Source of the DNA: Candidatus Bathyarchaeota archaeon
GTDB lineage: Archaea > Thermoproteota > Bathyarchaeia > Bathyarchaeales > Bathyarchaeaceae
NCBI GenBank assembly: GCA_030608565.1
Contig: JAUWDY010000003.1
Span: 9,587-73,586 of the forward strand
DNA: 64,000 nucleotides
Direction: 5' to 3'
A program made the translations under genes and the position numbers. The notes beneath the pieces were generated by a model. It had not been told where the DNA came from, did not search any database, and saw only the letters and a program-made list of their open reading frames with translations. Positions within the stretch are counted from its first letter, which is position 1, and every line of letters begins with the position of its first letter. Positions 29,394 to 36,240 of the stretch are shown here, piece after piece.

Positions 29394-30386
29394 CTAGGAT
29401 GAAGGAGATGATGCAACCGCTAAAGGTGAGATTTTCTGAGCAGCTTTCTTGATTTTGGCTTCTGCAAGCAGTTTGGGAATTATTTCTACATAGTGAACCG
29501 ACATTATATGGCACCCTGCGCACAAGCCAGATTTTTTGAGTTCCTTGATGAAGGGAGCAAAGAACTTGATATTGATCCGATCGTATTTTTCCCGTTTTTC
29601 TGCCTTGGATATTGATTGTTGTTTCACCTGTTTGAATTTGTCCAAAAGTTCCTTCGGGACCTTAACGCCGGGAACAAACTTGTCGAATTCAGCTGCGACG
29701 CCATAACTTCTCATTGGAAAGATGCCAACTAACACGGGGACACTGAACATTCTGAACATTTTCAGGAACTCAATTGTCTTATCGATATCATAGCAAACTT
29801 GCGTTTGGACAAAATCTGCCCCGTTCTCCACTTTTCGAACAACCTTAAGTATCTCCGGCTCTATGGGATCAGCATTAGGATTAGCTGCTACACCAATGTT
29901 AAATTGAGGGCGCGGGCCTTCAATATCATTACCGTTAAGGTCCTTTCCCTCGTCAACCATTCTACGAACCATGCCGGTCAAGAGGGTAGCATCCAAGTCA
30001 AAAACCGGCTTAGCATTAGGCATATCACCTAGAAGGGTATGGTCTCCAGTCAATGTCAACACGTTCTTTATCCCTAGAACTGCAGCTCCCAATAAATCGC
30101 TTGTAAGTGCTATTCGGTTCCTGTCTGCACACCTTATCTGATATATGGTTTCCATTCCAGCTTCTTTCTGGACAACATGTGCAGAGACTAAACTAGCTAC
30201 TGCGGCGTAAGAGGAGGGGTTATCAGTAACATTGCATGCCGTAACATATCCTCTCAGAGACTTGGCTTCTGCTATTACACTGGATAAATCTGTTGTTTTT
30301 ACGGGTTCGAGTTCTCCAGTAAGAACGAATTTTCCTGATTGGATTTTTTTCATTAAATTCGAAAAGGCTTTCCTCAACTTTGTCAC
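29394..30386 (-). CDS. metF: MetF-like methylene-tetrahydrofolate/-H4MPT reductase, paralogue 2
   Basis: 330 aa. By eye it is roughly 55-60% identical to paralogue 1 (FVLTGELEPVKT...NVTDNP...LTLTGDHTLLGD...FVQTQVCY), with a longer C-terminus. Confidence 0.85.
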   Translation of the reverse strand: MTKLRKAFSNLMKKIQSGKFVLTGELEPVKTTDLSSVIAEAKSLRGYVTACNVTDNPSSYAAVASLVSAHVVQKEAGMETIYQIRCADRNRIALTSDLLGAAVLGIKNVLTLTGDHTLLGDMPNAKPVFDLDATLLTGMVRRMVDEGKDLNGNDIEGPRPQFNIGVAANPNADPIEPEILKVVRKVENGADFVQTQVCYDIDKTIEFLKMFRMFSVPVLVGIFPMRSYGVAAEFDKFVPGVKVPKELLDKFKQVKQQSISKAEKREKYDRINIKFFAPFIKELKKSGLCAGCHIMSVHYVEIIPKLLAEAKIKKAAQKISPLAVASSPSS

Positions 30387-30393
30387 CTAATAC

Positions 30394-31182
30394 TCATTTC
30401 ACCACGGGTGCATCTTGGGATTTGGCATTTTTCACTTGTTTTGCCTTTTCTTTTATCGCTTTAACTATATATTTTTCAGTTTCTTCTGGCCCCATCACAG
30501 TTGTTTCTCTTCCTATTCTGTGGCTAGGAATGGCATCTATCCCTCTTGGATACGCCTCCAATCCAAATTCACGTGGAGGCCTTACCTTTCTAAAGAGATC
30601 CATTCTTCCGAATTTCTTTAAACGCTGCCATATTAAGAACCACGCGCAATCGCGTACATAGCCTCCAACCTCGCATTTGCCATCGATCATGCCTCCGCAA
30701 GGCCCGTTCATCAGACCCTTTGCGCATCTGGTCACGGGGCAGATGCCAGCGGTTTCTCCAAGGTGACAATTTCCACATGCCCGGCATCGCTCATAGTAAA
30801 GACCTATGCGTTCAACTTTACCCAAAAAATGAGTGTTAAGTCCTGGGATGCAAGGTAATTCGGCTATCTCAGCTAGGGTTTGGACGCCTGCACCACACAT
30901 GAGACACAAAAAAGCATCTATATTTTTCCCTCTTCCTTGCCTCTGAATTTCCCGCCAATCCTTTCGAGCAATGCGTTCATCACAAGGAGCCTCTACCACA
31001 ACTGTGTCAACGAACCATTTTCCCCGAAGCTTGTCAGCCATTTCTCTAACTTGTGGTTCGCCTCCAGTTTGGACAGCAGTCGCGCATGTTCCACAACCAA
31101 CGATCATAATGTTGCTATAGGATTGAAGCGTTCTCATGATTTCTTCCAAAGGTTTCTGGGTTGTTATAATCATTCTTTCCAC
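30394..31182 (-). CDS. metV: MetV-like subunit, paralogue 2
   Basis: 262 aa. It has MIVGCGTCAT, MCGAGVQTLAE, RCRACGNCHLGETAGICPVTRCAKGLMNGPCGGMIDGKCEV..DCAW and a 35-aa acidic/lysine tail. Confidence 0.8.
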   Translation of the reverse strand: MERMIITTQKPLEEIMRTLQSYSNIMIVGCGTCATAVQTGGEPQVREMADKLRGKWFVDTVVVEAPCDERIARKDWREIQRQGRGKNIDAFLCLMCGAGVQTLAEIAELPCIPGLNTHFLGKVERIGLYYERCRACGNCHLGETAGICPVTRCAKGLMNGPCGGMIDGKCEVGGYVRDCAWFLIWQRLKKFGRMDLFRKVRPPREFGLEAYPRGIDAIPSHRIGRETTVMGPEETEKYIVKAIKEKAKQVKNAKSQDAPVVK

Positions 31183-31332
31183 GCCGTTTTGTTTTTCTCT
31201 AATTCACCTTCTCGGTGCCCTCCATACTCATGGAGAGAAGATACTGTGAAGGAAGTGAAAAAAACTCGTTGTGCGATATTAAGCTTTTGCATTATCAATC
31301 TACACCCCAAATTCTGGAGCCTAGTCTTTATA

Positions 31333-31342
31333 CTTTTATAAA
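31333..31342 (+). promoter_or_regulatory. TATA-box candidate (CTTTTATAAA) for the hdrA-like operon
   Basis: It ends about 55 nt upstream of the in-frame GTG at 31398, in the metV2/hdrA divergent spacer. Confidence 0.35.
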
Positions 31343-31397
31343 CTACGATATCATTACTACAATTCCACGCCATGGACCTACAGGAGAAAAAGCAGCT

Positions 31398-34300
31398 GTG
31401 ACAAACGACATTCTAGTCATAGGCGGAGGAATAGCAGGCATAACAGCTGCTCTAAACCTTGCAGAACAAGGTCATCAAGTCTATCTCATTGAAAAAGAAC
31501 CTTCCATCGGAGGACGAATGGCTCAACTTGACAAAACTTTTCCAACACTCGATTGCTCTATATGCATTCTAGCACCAAAGATGGTTGAGGTTTCTCGTCA
31601 TCCAAATATTCATCTTTTCACATGCTCAGAAGTCGAGAAAGTTGACCCGATAGACAAAGGAAAAACGTTTCGAGTAAAAGTAAAGAAGAGACCACGTTTC
31701 GTCAACGAAGAAAAATGTACTGGATGCAGGCTCTGCACAGAGAAATGTCCAGTTAAGATACCTAACGAATTCGAAGAAAAGCTGGGCAAGCGGAAAGCCA
31801 TCTATATGCCATTTCCGCAAGCGGTGCCTGCCACAGCTGTTATAGACGAGGAAAATTGCCTCTACTTCACTAAGGGTGTATGCAAAGTCTGCCAGAAATT
31901 CTGCCCAGCAGACGCCATAGATTTTGAACAGAAGGTTGAGGAAATTAAACTGGAAGTAGCAGCTATTGTTGTTGCCACGGGTTTTGATCTCCTTGATCCT
32001 TCCGTTTTGCCTCAGTATGGATACGGTAGATTCCCGAATGTATTAACTTCTCTTGAATATGAAAGGCTAATGAACGCAGCTGGCCCAACTAGTGGAAAAA
32101 TCCTCAAGGTATCAGACAAAAAGGAGCCGGAAAAACTTGCCTTTATTCAATGTATAGGCTCTAGAAATGAGAATGTAAAACCATACTGCTCCCAGATCTG
32201 TTGCACATATGCCACAAAAGAGGCAATCGTCACCAAGGAACATAATCCAAAGATAGACATAACAATCTTCTACAACGACCTTCGGGCATCAGGGAAAGGA
32301 CACCAAGAGTTTGTGAGAAGAGCAACAGACGAATTCGGCATAAAATATGTCAAAGGTCTACCCAGCGAAGTTCAACTTGACCTCAAAACAAACCGCCTCA
32401 AAATCAGATATGCTGACCTTCTGAAAGGTGAAGTAGAACCTACCCTGGTCGACATGGTTGTTTTATGTCCAGCTGTTGTCCCGAAGAGAGACAGTCAAGA
32501 ACTAGCAAAAACTTTAGGGATAGGCACAACAGAATACGGGTTTCTAAAGGCTGTGGGGACGTCAGCTCCAGTTGACACAGTCATCCCGGGAATCTATGTG
32601 TGCGGCGCTTGTGAAGGCCCAAAAGACATATCTCACACGGTGGCCCAAGCAAGTGCTGCTTCGACAACCGCTACATCTCGAACAGAACTAGTTCATGCCG
32701 AAACCAAGCGAATCAATGTTGAAGAAAAACCTGTGGGGAAAGAATCGCGTATTGGGGTTTTTGTCTGCAACTGTGGCATCAACATCGGCACCGTTGTAGA
32801 CGTGCCAAAGGTTGTTGAGTCTGCCAAAACCTTAGATGACGTAGTTCATGCCGAGGAACTCCTGTTTGCTTGCTCTAAGGATGCTCTTGAAAAGATCAAA
32901 GATGCCATTAGAGAGTATGAGTTAAACCGTGTTATCGTCGCCTCATGCACCCCAAGAACTCATGAACCCCTCTTTCGTGACACTTGCGAAGAGTCTGGCC
33001 TCAACCCATATCTCTTTGAGATGGTTAACATTCGAGAGCACGACTCATGGGTGCATCACAAACAGCCTAAAGAAGCCACAGAAAAAGCCAAAGACCTTGT
33101 TCGAATGGCAGTGGCCAAAGCAAAACTTCTGCGTCCCCTAAAACGACTAGAAGCTGATGTAACCCCATCCGTACTAATCATCGGTGGCGGAGTTTCCGGA
33201 TTAGTGGCAGCCAAGGCTGTTGCGGACAAGGGATTCAAGACATACATCGTTGAGAGAGAAAGCAAGCTTGGAGGAAGACGCATTGAAAGTTACGCCATTC
33301 CCTTCGAAGACCTCGATGCTAAGGTTCTGCTTGACCCCATCATCAACATGGTGGAAAACCACGAAAACATAGAAGTCTTCCTTTCCGCCCGACTGAAAGA
33401 GGTTAAGGGATCCATAGGCAATTTTGACGTGGCACTGCTTCAGAACGGCAAACCTGAAACATTAAGGGTTGGAGCGATAATCGTTGCCGTAGGAACAGAA
33501 GAACTGAGACCCAAAGGACTTTACGGCTACGGAAAAAATGACAACATCGTGACACTCTCAGAGCTTAGGCAACTGGCTAGACAGAAAAAGTTGACTGGCA
33601 AAGAAAAAATTGTCATGATTCTCTGTGTAGGCGTCCGAGAAAAAGAAGGACGAACTTACTGCAGCGCCACTTGCTGCGCTGAAGCTCTAGACTGTAGCCT
33701 AGAAATTAAGGAAAAATATCCCGAAATGCAGGTTTATGTTCTCTATCGAGATATACAGTTGCCATTAGAAGGCAGGAAATATTATCGCAAGGCTCATGAA
33801 AAGGGCATAAACTTCATACGATATGTTCCTGAAAAGCAACCTGAGGTAGCTTTTCAAGGAGAGAAGTCTATTGTTGAAGTTGACGATGTAGTGGCCGGAA
33901 TCAAGCTGAAAATTACAGCAGACAAAGTTGCTTTGGCGACACCTTTAATCCCCAGAGAAACCAATCAGGATCTCGCTCCTAAACTGAAAGTTCCGCTTAA
34001 CACGCAAGGCTTCTTCCTAGAAGCTCATCCAAAGCTGAGACCCTTAGATTTTGCTACTGACGGAATCTATCTTTGCGGAACCTGTCACAGTCCTCAAAAT
34101 CTTTCTGAATGCATATATCAAGCACTTGGAGCGGCATCAAGGGCTCTTATCCCCCTTATGAAAGGCAAAGTAATGAACGAACCCATGATTGCCGAAGTAA
34201 ATGCAGACCTCTGCGTAGCTTGTGCAAACTGCGAAGTAGTATGCGAATACGGAGCCATAAAAGTTGAAGGTTATGCAAAAGTTAACCCTCTTTTATGCAA

Positions 34301-34835
34301 AGGTTGTGGAACATGCTCTGTCGAATGCCCCGCTGCTGCTATAACAATGCACTATTTCCGTGACGATCAGATTTCATCTATGATAGAGGCAGCCTTGAGC
34401 ACTAGGCCTCTAACGGACAAGCCTAGAGCCTTAGCGTTTTTCTGCAACTGGTGCGCCTATGCTGGTGCCGATATGGCAGGAGTAAGTAGGTTCGATTATC
34501 CACCAACAGCCGAAATCATTCGAGTCATGTGCTCAGGCAGAGTCAATGAAACCCATCTGCTTCAAGCCTTCTTGCAAGGGGCGGATGGAGTCCTTGTTGG
34601 TGGATGTCACCCGGGCACATGCCACTACATTTCCGGAAACTTGAAGGCTGAAGAACGAATAAGAAATGTGAAAAAATGGCTTGAAGAAGCAGGCTTGGAA
34701 CCTCAAAGACTTAGGTTAGAATGGGTGTCAGCTGGAGAGGGAAAGAAAATGGCAGAAGTTATGGAGGACTTTACAGCACAACTGGAAAAGCTGGGTCCAA
34801 GTCCCCTTAGGAAATTGCTGGAGGACAAACAATGA
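31398..34835 (+). CDS. hdrA: Giant HdrA-like flavo-iron-sulfur protein: truncated HdrA module + full HdrA module + MvhD/FlpD domain
   Basis: About 1145 aa from the GTG at 31398, with GGAG at 31383-31386; the ORF is open from 31215. Two dinucleotide folds (DILVIGGGIAG, SVLIIGGGVSG), one TFPTLDCSIC motif, four CxxCxxCxxxCP motifs, an HdrA N-domain (IGVFVCNCGINIG...VASCTPRTHE) in the middle, and a C-terminal FFCNWCAYAGAD...GGCHPGTCHY. Confidence 0.85.
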   Translation: MTNDILVIGGGIAGITAALNLAEQGHQVYLIEKEPSIGGRMAQLDKTFPTLDCSICILAPKMVEVSRHPNIHLFTCSEVEKVDPIDKGKTFRVKVKKRPRFVNEEKCTGCRLCTEKCPVKIPNEFEEKLGKRKAIYMPFPQAVPATAVIDEENCLYFTKGVCKVCQKFCPADAIDFEQKVEEIKLEVAAIVVATGFDLLDPSVLPQYGYGRFPNVLTSLEYERLMNAAGPTSGKILKVSDKKEPEKLAFIQCIGSRNENVKPYCSQICCTYATKEAIVTKEHNPKIDITIFYNDLRASGKGHQEFVRRATDEFGIKYVKGLPSEVQLDLKTNRLKIRYADLLKGEVEPTLVDMVVLCPAVVPKRDSQELAKTLGIGTTEYGFLKAVGTSAPVDTVIPGIYVCGACEGPKDISHTVAQASAASTTATSRTELVHAETKRINVEEKPVGKESRIGVFVCNCGINIGTVVDVPKVVESAKTLDDVVHAEELLFACSKDALEKIKDAIREYELNRVIVASCTPRTHEPLFRDTCEESGLNPYLFEMVNIREHDSWVHHKQPKEATEKAKDLVRMAVAKAKLLRPLKRLEADVTPSVLIIGGGVSGLVAAKAVADKGFKTYIVERESKLGGRRIESYAIPFEDLDAKVLLDPIINMVENHENIEVFLSARLKEVKGSIGNFDVALLQNGKPETLRVGAIIVAVGTEELRPKGLYGYGKNDNIVTLSELRQLARQKKLTGKEKIVMILCVGVREKEGRTYCSATCCAEALDCSLEIKEKYPEMQVYVLYRDIQLPLEGRKYYRKAHEKGINFIRYVPEKQPEVAFQGEKSIVEVDDVVAGIKLKITADKVALATPLIPRETNQDLAPKLKVPLNTQGFFLEAHPKLRPLDFATDGIYLCGTCHSPQNLSECIYQALGAASRALIPLMKGKVMNEPMIAEVNADLCVACANCEVVCEYGAIKVEGYAKVNPLLCKGCGTCSVECPAAAITMHYFRDDQISSMIEAALSTRPLTDKPRALAFFCNWCAYAGADMAGVSRFDYPPTAEIIRVMCSGRVNETHLLQAFLQGADGVLVGGCHPGTCHYISGNLKAEERIRNVKKWLEEAGLEPQRLRLEWVSAGEGKKMAEVMEDFTAQLEKLGPSPLRKLLEDKQ

Positions 34836-35350
34836 CAAAGGAGACTGTCCGAGCTTCAGAGCTTGATTCTGACTTCAAGTTTGAGGTCGCCAAGACCTAT
34901 GAGGGAAAAACAGTTCTTTGGTGTGTTCAGTGTGGCATGTGCACCTCCAACTGTCCTTATTCTGATGTCTTGGATGTGAAGCCACATCAAGTGATTAAAA
35001 TGGTTCTGTTGGGAATGAGAGAACAAGCCATTAGCTGCAAGTCGATCTGGTTATGCTCTACTTGTTTCATGTGTGCCGAAAGGTGTCCTCAGGGCGTGGA
35101 GCTTGGGAGAGTTATGTTTGCCCTAAAAAATATCGCTGCAAGAGAGAAAGGTGTTCCGGAAGGATTTAGGCTAGTTGGGCAACAAGTATTTCAAACTGGG
35201 CGTGCAATGGAAATTACCGCATTTCGTGAGAAAGAACGAGAGCGCTTGGAGCTACCAAAAACTCAGACCGATTCCGAAGACATAAAGAAACTGCTTAAAA
35301 AACTGAAGTTCGACAAACTTCTGAAAGATAAAGGAGACCAACAGTGGTGA
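34832..35350 (+). CDS. hdrC: Heterodisulfide reductase subunit C-like (2x[4Fe-4S])
   Basis: 172 aa with CVQCGMCTSNCP and CSTCFMCAERCP. It is coupled to hdrA by an ATGA overlap. Confidence 0.85.
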   Translation: MTKETVRASELDSDFKFEVAKTYEGKTVLWCVQCGMCTSNCPYSDVLDVKPHQVIKMVLLGMREQAISCKSIWLCSTCFMCAERCPQGVELGRVMFALKNIAAREKGVPEGFRLVGQQVFQTGRAMEITAFREKERERLELPKTQTDSEDIKKLLKKLKFDKLLKDKGDQQW

Positions 35351-36240
35351 AGTACTCTTATTTTCTAGGCTGCCAAGTTCCGGCTAGAGTAAACTACTGC
35401 GACCTAGCCACAAGAAGGGTTACCGAAGCTTTAGGAATAGAGTTGATTGATCTTCAAGGCGCTGGTTGTTGTGGCTGTTACCTCCGTTCCGTAGATTCCA
35501 GAGTTGCGCTTGCTCTAGCTTCAAGGATTCTAGCATTGTCTGACAAAACGGGTCTCGATTTGGTTGTGTTATGCAATAGCTGCTACTCCACCCTTGTTGA
35601 AACTAATGAATTTCTGAGAGAAAATCCGGAGTTGCGGACGGAGATTAATGAGTTGCTTGCTCCTCAAGATTTAGAATATAAAGGCAAAACCAAAGTGAAG
35701 GACATCATTCAAGTCTTCTATCATGATTACGGTCTCCACAAAATCAGCTCGAAAGTCACTAAATCTTTTGAGGGATTGAAAGTCGCTGTTCAGTACGGCT
35801 GTCACCTTCTCCGTCCTTCGAAGAGCACAAAGTTTGACAACCCGGAGGCACCACGTATTCTCGACGACCTAGTGGAGGTTACTAGGGCAAAAAGCATCTA
35901 CTGGCCCCTTAAACTTTGGTGCTGCGGCTTCCCAACACTCCCTATGAACAGAGAGATGGGCACAAGCCTAGCAAGAAACAAGCTTAGAGATGCAAAGGAT
36001 GCAGGAGCAGATTGCATGGTGACCACATGCCCTTCGTGCCAAATATCCTTCGATGTACTACAACCCAGCACTGCAAAACATTATGGAGAGGAATACAACC
36101 TTCCAGTATTGTACTATCCTCAACTCTTGGGGTTAGCCATGAACATGAGTTTCAAAGAAGTGGGCTTGCATCTGAATCGTGTTTCAACCAAACCCATCCT
36201 GCGCTTCATTGAAGAGAAACGAATTGAAGCCACTGCCTAA
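35344..36240 (+). CDS. hdrB: Heterodisulfide reductase subunit B-like (two CCG domains)
   Basis: 298 aa. The cysteine patterns LGCQ...GCCGC...CNSC and YGCH...WCCGFP...CPSC indicate two complete CCG motifs. Confidence 0.85.
   Translation: MVKYSYFLGCQVPARVNYCDLATRRVTEALGIELIDLQGAGCCGCYLRSVDSRVALALASRILALSDKTGLDLVVLCNSCYSTLVETNEFLRENPELRTEINELLAPQDLEYKGKTKVKDIIQVFYHDYGLHKISSKVTKSFEGLKVAVQYGCHLLRPSKSTKFDNPEAPRILDDLVEVTRAKSIYWPLKLWCCGFPTLPMNREMGTSLARNKLRDAKDAGADCMVTTCPSCQISFDVLQPSTAKHYGEEYNLPVLYYPQLLGLAMNMSFKEVGLHLNRVSTKPILRFIEEKRIEATA

Follow-up and report, generated by a model that had tools for sequence, protein, structure and literature searches.

How two HdrA units could work together within one polypeptide, and what such a protein would do in an archaeon without Mcr, is the question raised by a gene product of 1,145 amino acids (aa) from Candidatus Bathyarchaeota archaeon (assembly GCA_030608565.1). 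The gene, referred to as hdrA here, lies in a stretch of 64,000 nucleotides (nt) of contig JAUWDY010000003.1 (the window), whose positions are used as coordinates throughout. From the sequence alone, the original prediction had described the product as a rearranged double HdrA to which MvhD is fused and in which just one flavin adenine dinucleotide (FAD) module is of the canonical bifurcation type. Our analysis supports this description, and we consider it likely that the protein is a type II HdrA of class A3 with a fused MvhD that goes back to an ancient fusion, pairs its two HdrA units within the chain, bifurcates electrons at its first FAD domain and has MetVF as its likeliest high-potential acceptor.

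We parsed the protein with Pfam, NCBIfam and phmmer searches against Protein Data Bank (PDB) chains and with a three-way alignment of both halves and a methanogen HdrA, the latter rebuilt from the phmmer output. The resulting order is a first TrxR-type FAD domain with an inserted ferredoxin (TrxR1), an HdrA N-terminal iron-sulfur domain (N-domain), a second TrxR domain (TrxR2), a C-terminal ferredoxin and MvhD; Pfam, phmmer and the three-way alignment bear out this order, and every motif quoted in the original prediction is present in it. By phmmer, the chain contains three HdrA stretches in permuted order, in which aa 4 to 383 correspond to HdrA residues 153 to 525 (TrxR plus inserted ferredoxin), aa 442 to 619 to residues 4 to 181 (N-domain plus the start of the Rossmann fold), and aa 869 to 1001 to residues 521 to 654 (the end of TrxR plus the C-terminal ferredoxin), followed by MvhD at aa 1008 to 1140. 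Pfam also identified two Rossmann/pyridine-nucleotide-disulfide-type regions, ferredoxin motifs at aa 102 to 173 and 931 to 984, and MvhD (PF02662) at aa 1012 to 1133 (E value, 1.9e-52), with no match to PF14691/GltD in the protein.

TrxR1 carries the motifs DILVIGGGIAG (aa 4 to 14), TFPTLDCSICILAPK (aa 47 to 61) and YCSQICC (aa 263 to 269). Within DKTFPTLDC53SIC56, C56 is the equivalent of Cys197 of canonical HdrA, and the [4Fe-4S] ligands of the domain are C252, C264, C268 and C269. The inserted ferredoxin, with the ligand sets C107/110/113/117 and C154/162/165/169, aligns to the inserted ferredoxin of canonical HdrA, where this domain forms the ferredoxin-facing low-potential exit. The N-domain, recognizable by IGVFVCNCGINIG from aa 452, contributes C457, C459, C492 and C517. 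TrxR2 (SVLIIGGGVSG at aa 591 to 601, YCSATCC at aa 754 to 760) still has C743/C755/C759/C760 as cluster ligands along with the Rossmann motif (G596/G601, E619); as predicted from its motifs, it has no DCSxC pair, and the inserted ferredoxin is cleanly deleted in the three-way alignment. Downstream of it are the C-terminal ferredoxin ligands (C939/942/945/949 and C967/970/973/977) and the MvhD cysteines C1016, C1019, C1045, C1070 and C1075. The same alignment indicates that neither half alone is a complete HdrA.

We also considered that the second half might be a non-HdrA flavoprotein, an outcome that the original prediction had named as fatal to it, and rejected this option on several grounds. 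TrxR2 is ∼30% identical to TrxR1 in tblastn cross-matches, keeps the YCSxxCC cluster motif, and is flanked by an HdrA N-domain and a C-terminal ferredoxin; whole HdrA chains match the predicted structure, and the TrxR2 clade joins the HdrA tree.

The fold was predicted with AlphaFold2 on the homologue alignment and gave a mean predicted local distance difference test (pLDDT) score of 89.6 and a predicted template modeling (pTM) score of 0.91, the linker at aa 428 to 450 being the only weak internal segment. In a Foldseek search of the PDB, the first half matched chain 8rvu_a with a root mean square deviation of 1.1 Å (TM score, 0.96; 49% identity), whole HdrA chains (5ODC, 8RVU and 7BKB) matched at a TM score of ∼0.77, and MvhD chains matched at 0.91. 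Both halves thus match solved HdrA chains, and both TrxR units fold as HdrA TrxR domains in the model. The pTM score suggests a fixed packing of the two halves in the predicted structure, and the notion that the polypeptide mimics an HdrA dimer finds support in the sequence, in this model and in the published analogues discussed below.

To locate the bifurcation site, we compared the residues of both TrxR domains with those of the methanogen enzyme across an alignment of 93 sequences. In TrxR1, K274 and E222 correspond to K409 and E356, and C53/C56 to the Cys194/Cys197 pair; K274 and E222 occur together in all 93 sequences, in which C53 and C56 are also invariant. At the K409 and E356 positions, TrxR2 carries D765 and R724, and Lys and Glu are found together there in just 12 of the 93. 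The sequences show no variation in the iron-sulfur ligands of unit 1, of the N-domain, of the C-terminal ferredoxin or of MvhD, while the cluster cysteines of TrxR2 are retained in 84 to 92 sequences. The Cys197 equivalent (C56) is present only in unit 1, which has no N-domain, and the N-domain cysteine set only in unit 2. This census points to one conserved bifurcation-type flavin site and a degenerate but retained second flavin domain, in line with the single canonical module of the original prediction.

Some relatives depart from this layout. In the Bathyarchaeia loci L017 (7701-8915) and L038 (1575-2789), TrxR2 keeps an inserted 2x[4Fe-4S] ferredoxin and a Lys after YCSxxCC, has no DCSxC pair and is basal within the TrxR2 clade, so that it may represent an intermediate form. 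In two Desulfobacterales homologues (L008:6181-6183 and L015:736-738), the exact codon that corresponds to Cys197 is an in-frame TGA (TFPTNDC[SA]M-TGA-I), which probably encodes selenocysteine and splits the reading frame in standard gene calls. Other relatives with 67 to 69% identity (P0010, P0014 and P0026, of 1,605 to 1,617 aa, and those at L009 and L014) contain a GltD/NfnB-like NAD(P)H module of ∼460 aa in the inserted-ferredoxin region of TrxR1, a Moorella-type layout but with MvhD fused.

The unusual domain order is encoded in a single gene. Translation from the GTG at 31398 to the TGA ending at 34835 yields 1,145 stop-free codons, as originally predicted. This start is supported by an AGGAG at 31382 to 31386, ∼10 nt 5' of the GTG, by the 97% identical locus L001, in which the frame is shut by stops three codons upstream of this GTG, and by homologues, which start 4 to 9 residues ahead of the Rossmann motif. 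The database gene call P0002 (1,201 aa) starts ∼56 codons earlier (31215-31397 region) and, given the stops in L001, is over-extended; a longer N terminus from an ATG at ∼31230 or the GTG at 31215 was rejected, since the extension is also not conserved. A frameshift or a missed stop that had joined two genes, the other outcome named as fatal to the original prediction, is excluded, because all five segments lie in one frame in two independent assemblies (L001 and L002, the latter 87% identical) as well as in ours and because 92 homologues of 1,139 to 1,175 aa align over their full length at 50 to 83% identity. Locus L001 (CAYTTK010000009.1) is filed as an “uncultured Pirellulales bacterium,” yet it is syntenic with the Bathyarchaeia window (metF, metV, hdrA, hdrC, hdrB) at 96 to 100% protein identity and is probably a mis-binned archaeal contig. 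In CP070679.1 (Bathyarchaeota bin695; L007 and L010), the orthologous gene is split between two places, with metF-metV, TrxR1 and half of the N-domain at ∼0.12 Mb and TrxR2, the C-terminal ferredoxin, MvhD, hdrC and hdrB at ∼1.11 Mb, reflecting either a rearrangement or a misassembly.

In order to gain an idea of the distribution of this fusion, we scanned one-genome-per-species contigs twice and collected at least 136 loci. The order TrxR1, N-domain, TrxR2 was found in at least 105 genes from at least 97 loci of both Archaea and Bacteria, and MvhD is fused in 84 of the 105 genes listed. At least 36 of the genes are archaeal (Thermoplasmatota, Bathyarchaeia, Asgard lineages, Methanobacteriota, Nitrososphaerota and Hydrothermarchaeota, where Methanobacteriota is the phylum label of the National Center for Biotechnology Information and takes in the Methanosarcina and Methanocellales loci); at least 69 are bacterial, mostly from Thermodesulfobacteriota, with others from Chloroflexota, Planctomycetota, Myxococcota, Thermotogota and further phyla. 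We built a maximum-likelihood tree from 67 TrxR domains; in it, the TrxR2 domains, with one exception, fall into a single clade (Shimodaira-Hasegawa-like approximate likelihood ratio test [SH-aLRT], 96 to 99), and the TrxR1 domains, L049 aside, form a separate clade (SH-aLRT, 99) nested among single-domain HdrAs. The separate phylogeny of the two halves suggested with the original prediction hence resolves them into two clades. Since both are well supported and both contain archaeal and bacterial members, with a broadly similar inner branching by eye, the pattern fits one ancient fusion. In the Chloroflexota gene L049:3316-6044, the two TrxR domains are sisters of each other, which indicates an independent, more recent duplication with the same overall layout.

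The architecture as such is not new. Type II HdrAs have been described as fusions of two classes of type I, A6 and A12, to which MvhD is optionally fused; class A3+MVH comprises eight domains and up to 1,182 aa (Lyu, Yu & Lu 2025, PMC12054007) and is HdrA3/4 of anaerobic methanotrophic archaea (ANME). For ANME HdrA3/HdrA4 and the Moorella HdrA, a complementary loss of Cys197 and the N-domain was noted and self-pairing proposed (Chadwick 2022, PMC9012536). The 1,145-aa protein shares with them an A6-like unit (TrxR plus inserted ferredoxin) and an A12-like unit (N-domain, TrxR and C-terminal ferredoxin); the further marks of type II, namely, two TrxR domains in separate clades, the A6+A12 order, the complementary Cys197 and N-domain, and a fused MvhD, were likewise found. 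This order is that of Lyu et al. and the opposite of the one given in the text of Chadwick, where the N-domain unit comes first. The original prediction had mentioned tandem or elongated HdrA paralogues in ANME and related archaea, and these are indeed published, although this mention understates how well they have been cataloged, down to class A3+MVH (PMC12054007). Both surveys concerned mcr-bearing archaea and clusters with HdrBC, FdhB and a molybdopterin protein, whereas metVF adjoins the gene here; the novelty is a clean example with fused MvhD and metVF linkage in an Mcr-less Bathyarchaeia genome.

The closest mechanistic parallel is BamE of the class II benzoyl-CoA reductase of Geobacter metallireducens, which was described as “a fused HdrA dimer” with permuted domains in a cryo-electron microscopy preprint (10.64898/2026.04.10.717634; this comparison and those with Moorella and Sporomusa use the domain maps of the respective papers). 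BamE has a bifurcating FAD in TrxR1 (Lys280 near N5, Cys59-Cys62), a non-bifurcating FAD of mainly structural role in TrxR2 (Gln768) and seven [4Fe-4S] sites, and electron entry is by an adaptor of the MvhD type together with the C-terminal ferredoxin (10.64898/2026.04.10.717634). Its residue numbers lie 6, 6 and 3 from K274, C53/C56 and D765, respectively, a collinearity inferred from the numbering and not from an alignment. At the sequence level, the same division is seen in our protein, with K274, E222 and C53/C56 present in TrxR1 and absent from TrxR2. In contrast to the fused MvhD, BamF (MvhD-like, longer and with selenocysteine) is a separate subunit, and none of the BamE partners BamBC, BamD and BamGHI (tungsten aldehyde oxidoreductase, HdrD-like and HydABC-like genes) is encoded at this locus. 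The gene context in the window (metVF, hdrC, hdrB, a cooC-like gene, RACo, cdhDE, mtd and cofE) rules out BamE orthology; the mechanism may nonetheless be BamE-like. The residue census supports for the archaeal branch the picture of one bifurcating FAD as in BamE and argues against the proposal of two sites.

In terms of gene content, the locus resembles the Hdr-type methylene-tetrahydrofolate reductase known as MetFV-HdrABC-MvhD, which has two FAD per HdrA and linked metV, metF, hdrB, hdrC and mvhD genes (Mock 2014; PMC9430772); here, too, metF and metV are linked to hdrA, hdrB, hdrC and mvhD. The HdrAs of Sporomusa ovata and Moorella thermoacetica carry an additional TrxR-like domain at the N terminus, ahead of an HdrA core (N-domain, TrxR and C-terminal ferredoxin) that has no inserted ferredoxin (Kremp 2022, PMC9430772), an arrangement shared by our protein. 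In the Moorella HdrA (1,487 aa), the first unit is interrupted by a GltD NAD(P)H domain, which the Bathyarchaeia protein lacks, the first unit of the S. ovata HdrA (942 aa) is without the inserted ferredoxin that is intact here, and both have MvhD as a separate protein. The C1 carrier in our organism is probably tetrahydromethanopterin (H4MPT).

HdrA2 of Methanosarcina acetivorans is a type Ia HdrA-MvhD fusion with a single TrxR, 86.9 kDa and the canonical order (Yan 2017, PMC5296606). It shares the C-terminal MvhD and adjoining hdrC-hdrB-type genes with the 1,145-aa protein, and its model (NF040770) is the top-scoring one in NCBIfam, with 1,208 bits versus a cutoff of 1,100. This score adds up three stretches that between them span the model two times and is thereby inflated by the duplication; compared with HdrA2 (∼790 aa; N-domain, TrxR plus ferredoxin, C-terminal ferredoxin, MvhD), our protein has an additional A6-like unit in front and a degenerate second TrxR. 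We therefore rejected the HdrA2 assignment, whose cutoff is passed only through duplication.

The features of the locus are listed below. The ATGA overlap between hdrA and hdrC and the 7-nt overlap between hdrC and hdrB indicate an hdrA-hdrC-hdrB operon, and TTTATA-like boxes in the divergent region upstream form a putative promoter. The functions of metF, metV, hdrA, hdrB, hdrC and the fused mvhD all lie within 6.8 kb (29394-36240).

Table. Coordinates of hdrA, its domains and its neighbors in the 64,000-nt window.
Feature	Position	Strand	Details
Type II hdrA, encoding a fused double HdrA and a C-terminal MvhD	31398..34835	+	1,145 aa, intact open reading frame; AlphaFold2 pLDDT 89.6, pTM 0.91
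TrxR1, FAD domain with bifurcation signature	31398..32678	+	aa 1-427; 49% identical to 8rvu_a TrxR plus inserted ferredoxin, TM 0.96
Inserted 2x[4Fe-4S] ferredoxin within TrxR1	31695..31937	+	aa ∼100-180; Pfam Fer4/Fer4_7, aa 102-173
HdrA N-terminal (MvhD-like) iron-sulfur domain	32721..33152	+	aa 442-585; matches 8rvu_a residues 4-152; low pLDDT in the linker before it (aa 428-441)
TrxR2, second FAD-type domain	33153..34172	+	aa 586-925; three-way alignment, column counts
C-terminal 2x[4Fe-4S] ferredoxin	34173..34406	+	aa 926-1003; 8rvu_a residues 570-654; Pfam Fer4_21/Fer4_6
Fused MvhD/FlpD	34419..34817	+	aa 1008-1140; PF02662; 5odc_D and 7bkb_F, E ∼1e-45
hdrC-like, 172 aa	34832..35350	+	TIGR03290, 103 bits (cutoff 160); Fer4_8/Fer4_17; ATG overlaps hdrA stop (ATGA)
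hdrB-like, 298 aa, two CCG motifs	35344..36240	+	TIGR03288, 280.7 bits (cutoff 345); PF02754 in two stretches
metV (MTHFR C-terminal-like, DUF5981)	30394..31182	-	PF12225, E 2.6e-32; divergent from hdrA
metF (methylene-tetrahydropterin reductase family)	29394..30386	-	PF02219, E 1.1e-35
Divergent intergenic region, 215 nt	31183..31397	.	TTTATA-like boxes near 31327-31345 (putative promoter); AGGAG 31382-31386

The genome (1.76 Mb) is 98.5% complete; McrA was not found in it, and no Mer scored above the cutoff (best match, 99 bits versus 349). It has two MetF genes, both within the window. Seven further HdrA paralogues are encoded (regions C5:1644-38692, C41:6876-9236 and C2:4623-6984), four of them single-TrxR forms and three of type II, namely, C5:11819-15244, to which MvhD is fused, and two (C5:31519-34470 and C5:35296-38289) with a stand-alone MvhD after each of them. 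A decayed fragment with stops lies at C5:30502-31126, an Mvh-type hydrogenase is encoded beside another HdrA, and a [NiFe] hydrogenase large subunit is found directly upstream of C5:22637. Contig C5 has the appearance of an Hdr island.

In 10 of the 97 loci listed, MetF and MetV are both encoded no more than 4 kb from the fused gene, the outcome of the survey for the same fusion and its neighbors that the original prediction had called for. They form co-directional hdrA-metV-metF operons in the Bathyarchaeia loci L003 and L013 and are also found in the bacterial loci L009, L100, L104, L120, L121 and L129. In L003:6016-11130 and L013:6022-11035, which are hdrA(-mvhD)-metV-metF operons, no hdrB was detected in a 6-kb range; L003 also lacks hdrC, and an upstream hdrC-like match in L013 is weak (26% identical). 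MetV may thus contact HdrA directly in some lineages. At the Dehalococcoidales locus L009, metV-metF-hdrC lies just upstream of a GltD-containing fused gene.

We propose that the two HdrA units pair inside one chain, which would replace the homodimer of methanogen HdrA. Unit 1 (TrxR1 plus inserted ferredoxin) would hold the electron-bifurcating FAD, marked by the K274/E222 and C53-C56 signature. Unit 2 would supply the N-domain [4Fe-4S] cluster, completed by C56 as it is by the partner's Cys197 in canonical HdrA, a second FAD domain that is non-bifurcating and largely structural, and the C-terminal ferredoxin and MvhD as electron entry. Electrons from a donor module would then pass over the MvhD [2Fe-2S] cluster and the C-terminal ferredoxin clusters to the TrxR1 FAD. 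From there, the high-potential branch would lead through the TrxR1 cluster (C252/264/268/269) to HdrC, HdrB and MetVF, and the low-potential branch through the C53/C56 pair and the N-domain cluster to the inserted ferredoxin and on to ferredoxin. Given the translational coupling to hdrC-hdrB, the divergent metV-metF pair and the lack of a true Mer and of Mcr, MetVF-bound methylene-H4MPT (or methylene-tetrahydrofolate [H4F]) would most likely be the high-potential acceptor. A putative bifurcating methylene-pterin reductase is accordingly plausible; it would be the archaeal equivalent of the Hdr-type methylene-tetrahydrofolate reductase known from Moorella and Sporomusa, minus its NADH (GltD) domain.

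Several observations weigh against this proposal. Cofactor binding in the protein is predicted from motifs, no hydrogenase, FrhB/FdhB or GltD module adjoins the fused hdrA, and HdrB and HdrC score below their equivalog cutoffs. The metVF pair is divergent from hdrA and hence not co-transcribed with it, and its presence near only ∼10% of the fused genes listed suggests that the module is generic and that the MetVF partnership may not hold. The potential of the methylene/methyl couple is about -320 mV for H4MPT and -200 mV for H4F, so that H4MPT as the carrier (mtd is in the window) would leave little driving force for ferredoxin reduction. Finally, both FADs of type II HdrAs may bifurcate according to Lyu et al. 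(PMC12054007).

The most serious of the competing explanations, although we regard it as unlikely, is that the Hdr module has nothing to do with MetVF and serves another redox partner (a disulfide, another HdrB acceptor or a donor acting on MvhD), the metVF genes being mere neighbors in a C1/Wood-Ljungdahl island. Among the 105 fused genes listed, 63 have HdrC nearby but 10 have MetF and MetV within 4 kb; the Desulfobacterales gene L008 is followed by ferredoxin-like and molybdopterin oxidoreductase genes; the three other type II paralogues of the genome are not near metF, because both metF genes lie in the window; and HdrABC-MvhD of S. ovata did not co-purify with MetVF (PMC9430772). However, distant lineages show the metVF linkage as well, also as co-directional operons (L003, L013, L009 and several Thermodesulfobacteriota), the homologous proteins are tied together physically by S. 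ovata pull-downs and by the purification from Moorella, and an organism without Mcr should make no heterodisulfide of coenzymes M and B (CoM-S-S-CoB). The last point, together with the missing McrA, the lack of a Mer above the cutoff and both MetF genes in the window, makes a CoM-S-S-CoB reductase role unlikely, and we assign a very low probability to a genuine CoB-CoM heterodisulfide reductase of the HdrA2 type. The NF040770 score and the two CCG motifs of hdrB would fit such an enzyme, but that score is summed over three stretches, and the equivalog cutoffs are missed by HdrB, HdrC and HdrA, in the latter case with 775 bits versus 1,400 and 816 versus 1,300 for the CoB-CoM models NF041778 and NF041891.

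With regard to the flavin sites, two bifurcation events per chain, one at each FAD domain, appear improbable for this protein. Lyu et al. suggest this for type II HdrAs in general, 75% of whose sequences retain K409 and E356 (PMC12054007); TrxR2 does keep a Rossmann motif and its own [4Fe-4S] ligands, and its relative in L017 keeps the inserted ferredoxin and the Lys. The residues of the 1,145-aa HdrA do not support the suggestion, given D765 and R724 in TrxR2, the loss of the Cys pair and the inserted ferredoxin, the scarcity of Lys plus Glu in the TrxR2 of close homologues and the position of the second BamE FAD away from the branching point (10.64898/2026.04.10.717634). An artifact in which two ordinary hdrA genes and mvhD were joined by a missed stop or frameshift has practically no probability; this idea stems only from the unusual length, nothing was found to support it, and the shared open frame, the full-length homologues and the incompleteness of either half as an HdrA speak against it.

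A more specific and tentative proposal for Mcr-less Bathyarchaeia is that HdrA-MvhD, HdrCB and MetVF would form a flavin-based bifurcating or confurcating methylene-H4MPT reductase that replaces Mer and couples this Wood-Ljungdahl step to ferredoxin; in L003 and L013, MetV would dock on HdrA without HdrBC. The locus bears on the question of which electron donor or acceptor serves the MetF-type methylene reductases of Mer-less archaea, namely, Bathyarchaeia, Asgard lineages, ANME-1 and Syntrophoarchaeum. With six functions in 6.8 kb and no NADH domain, this locus offers a compact, expressible example for testing whether these reductases are coupled to ferredoxin by bifurcation.

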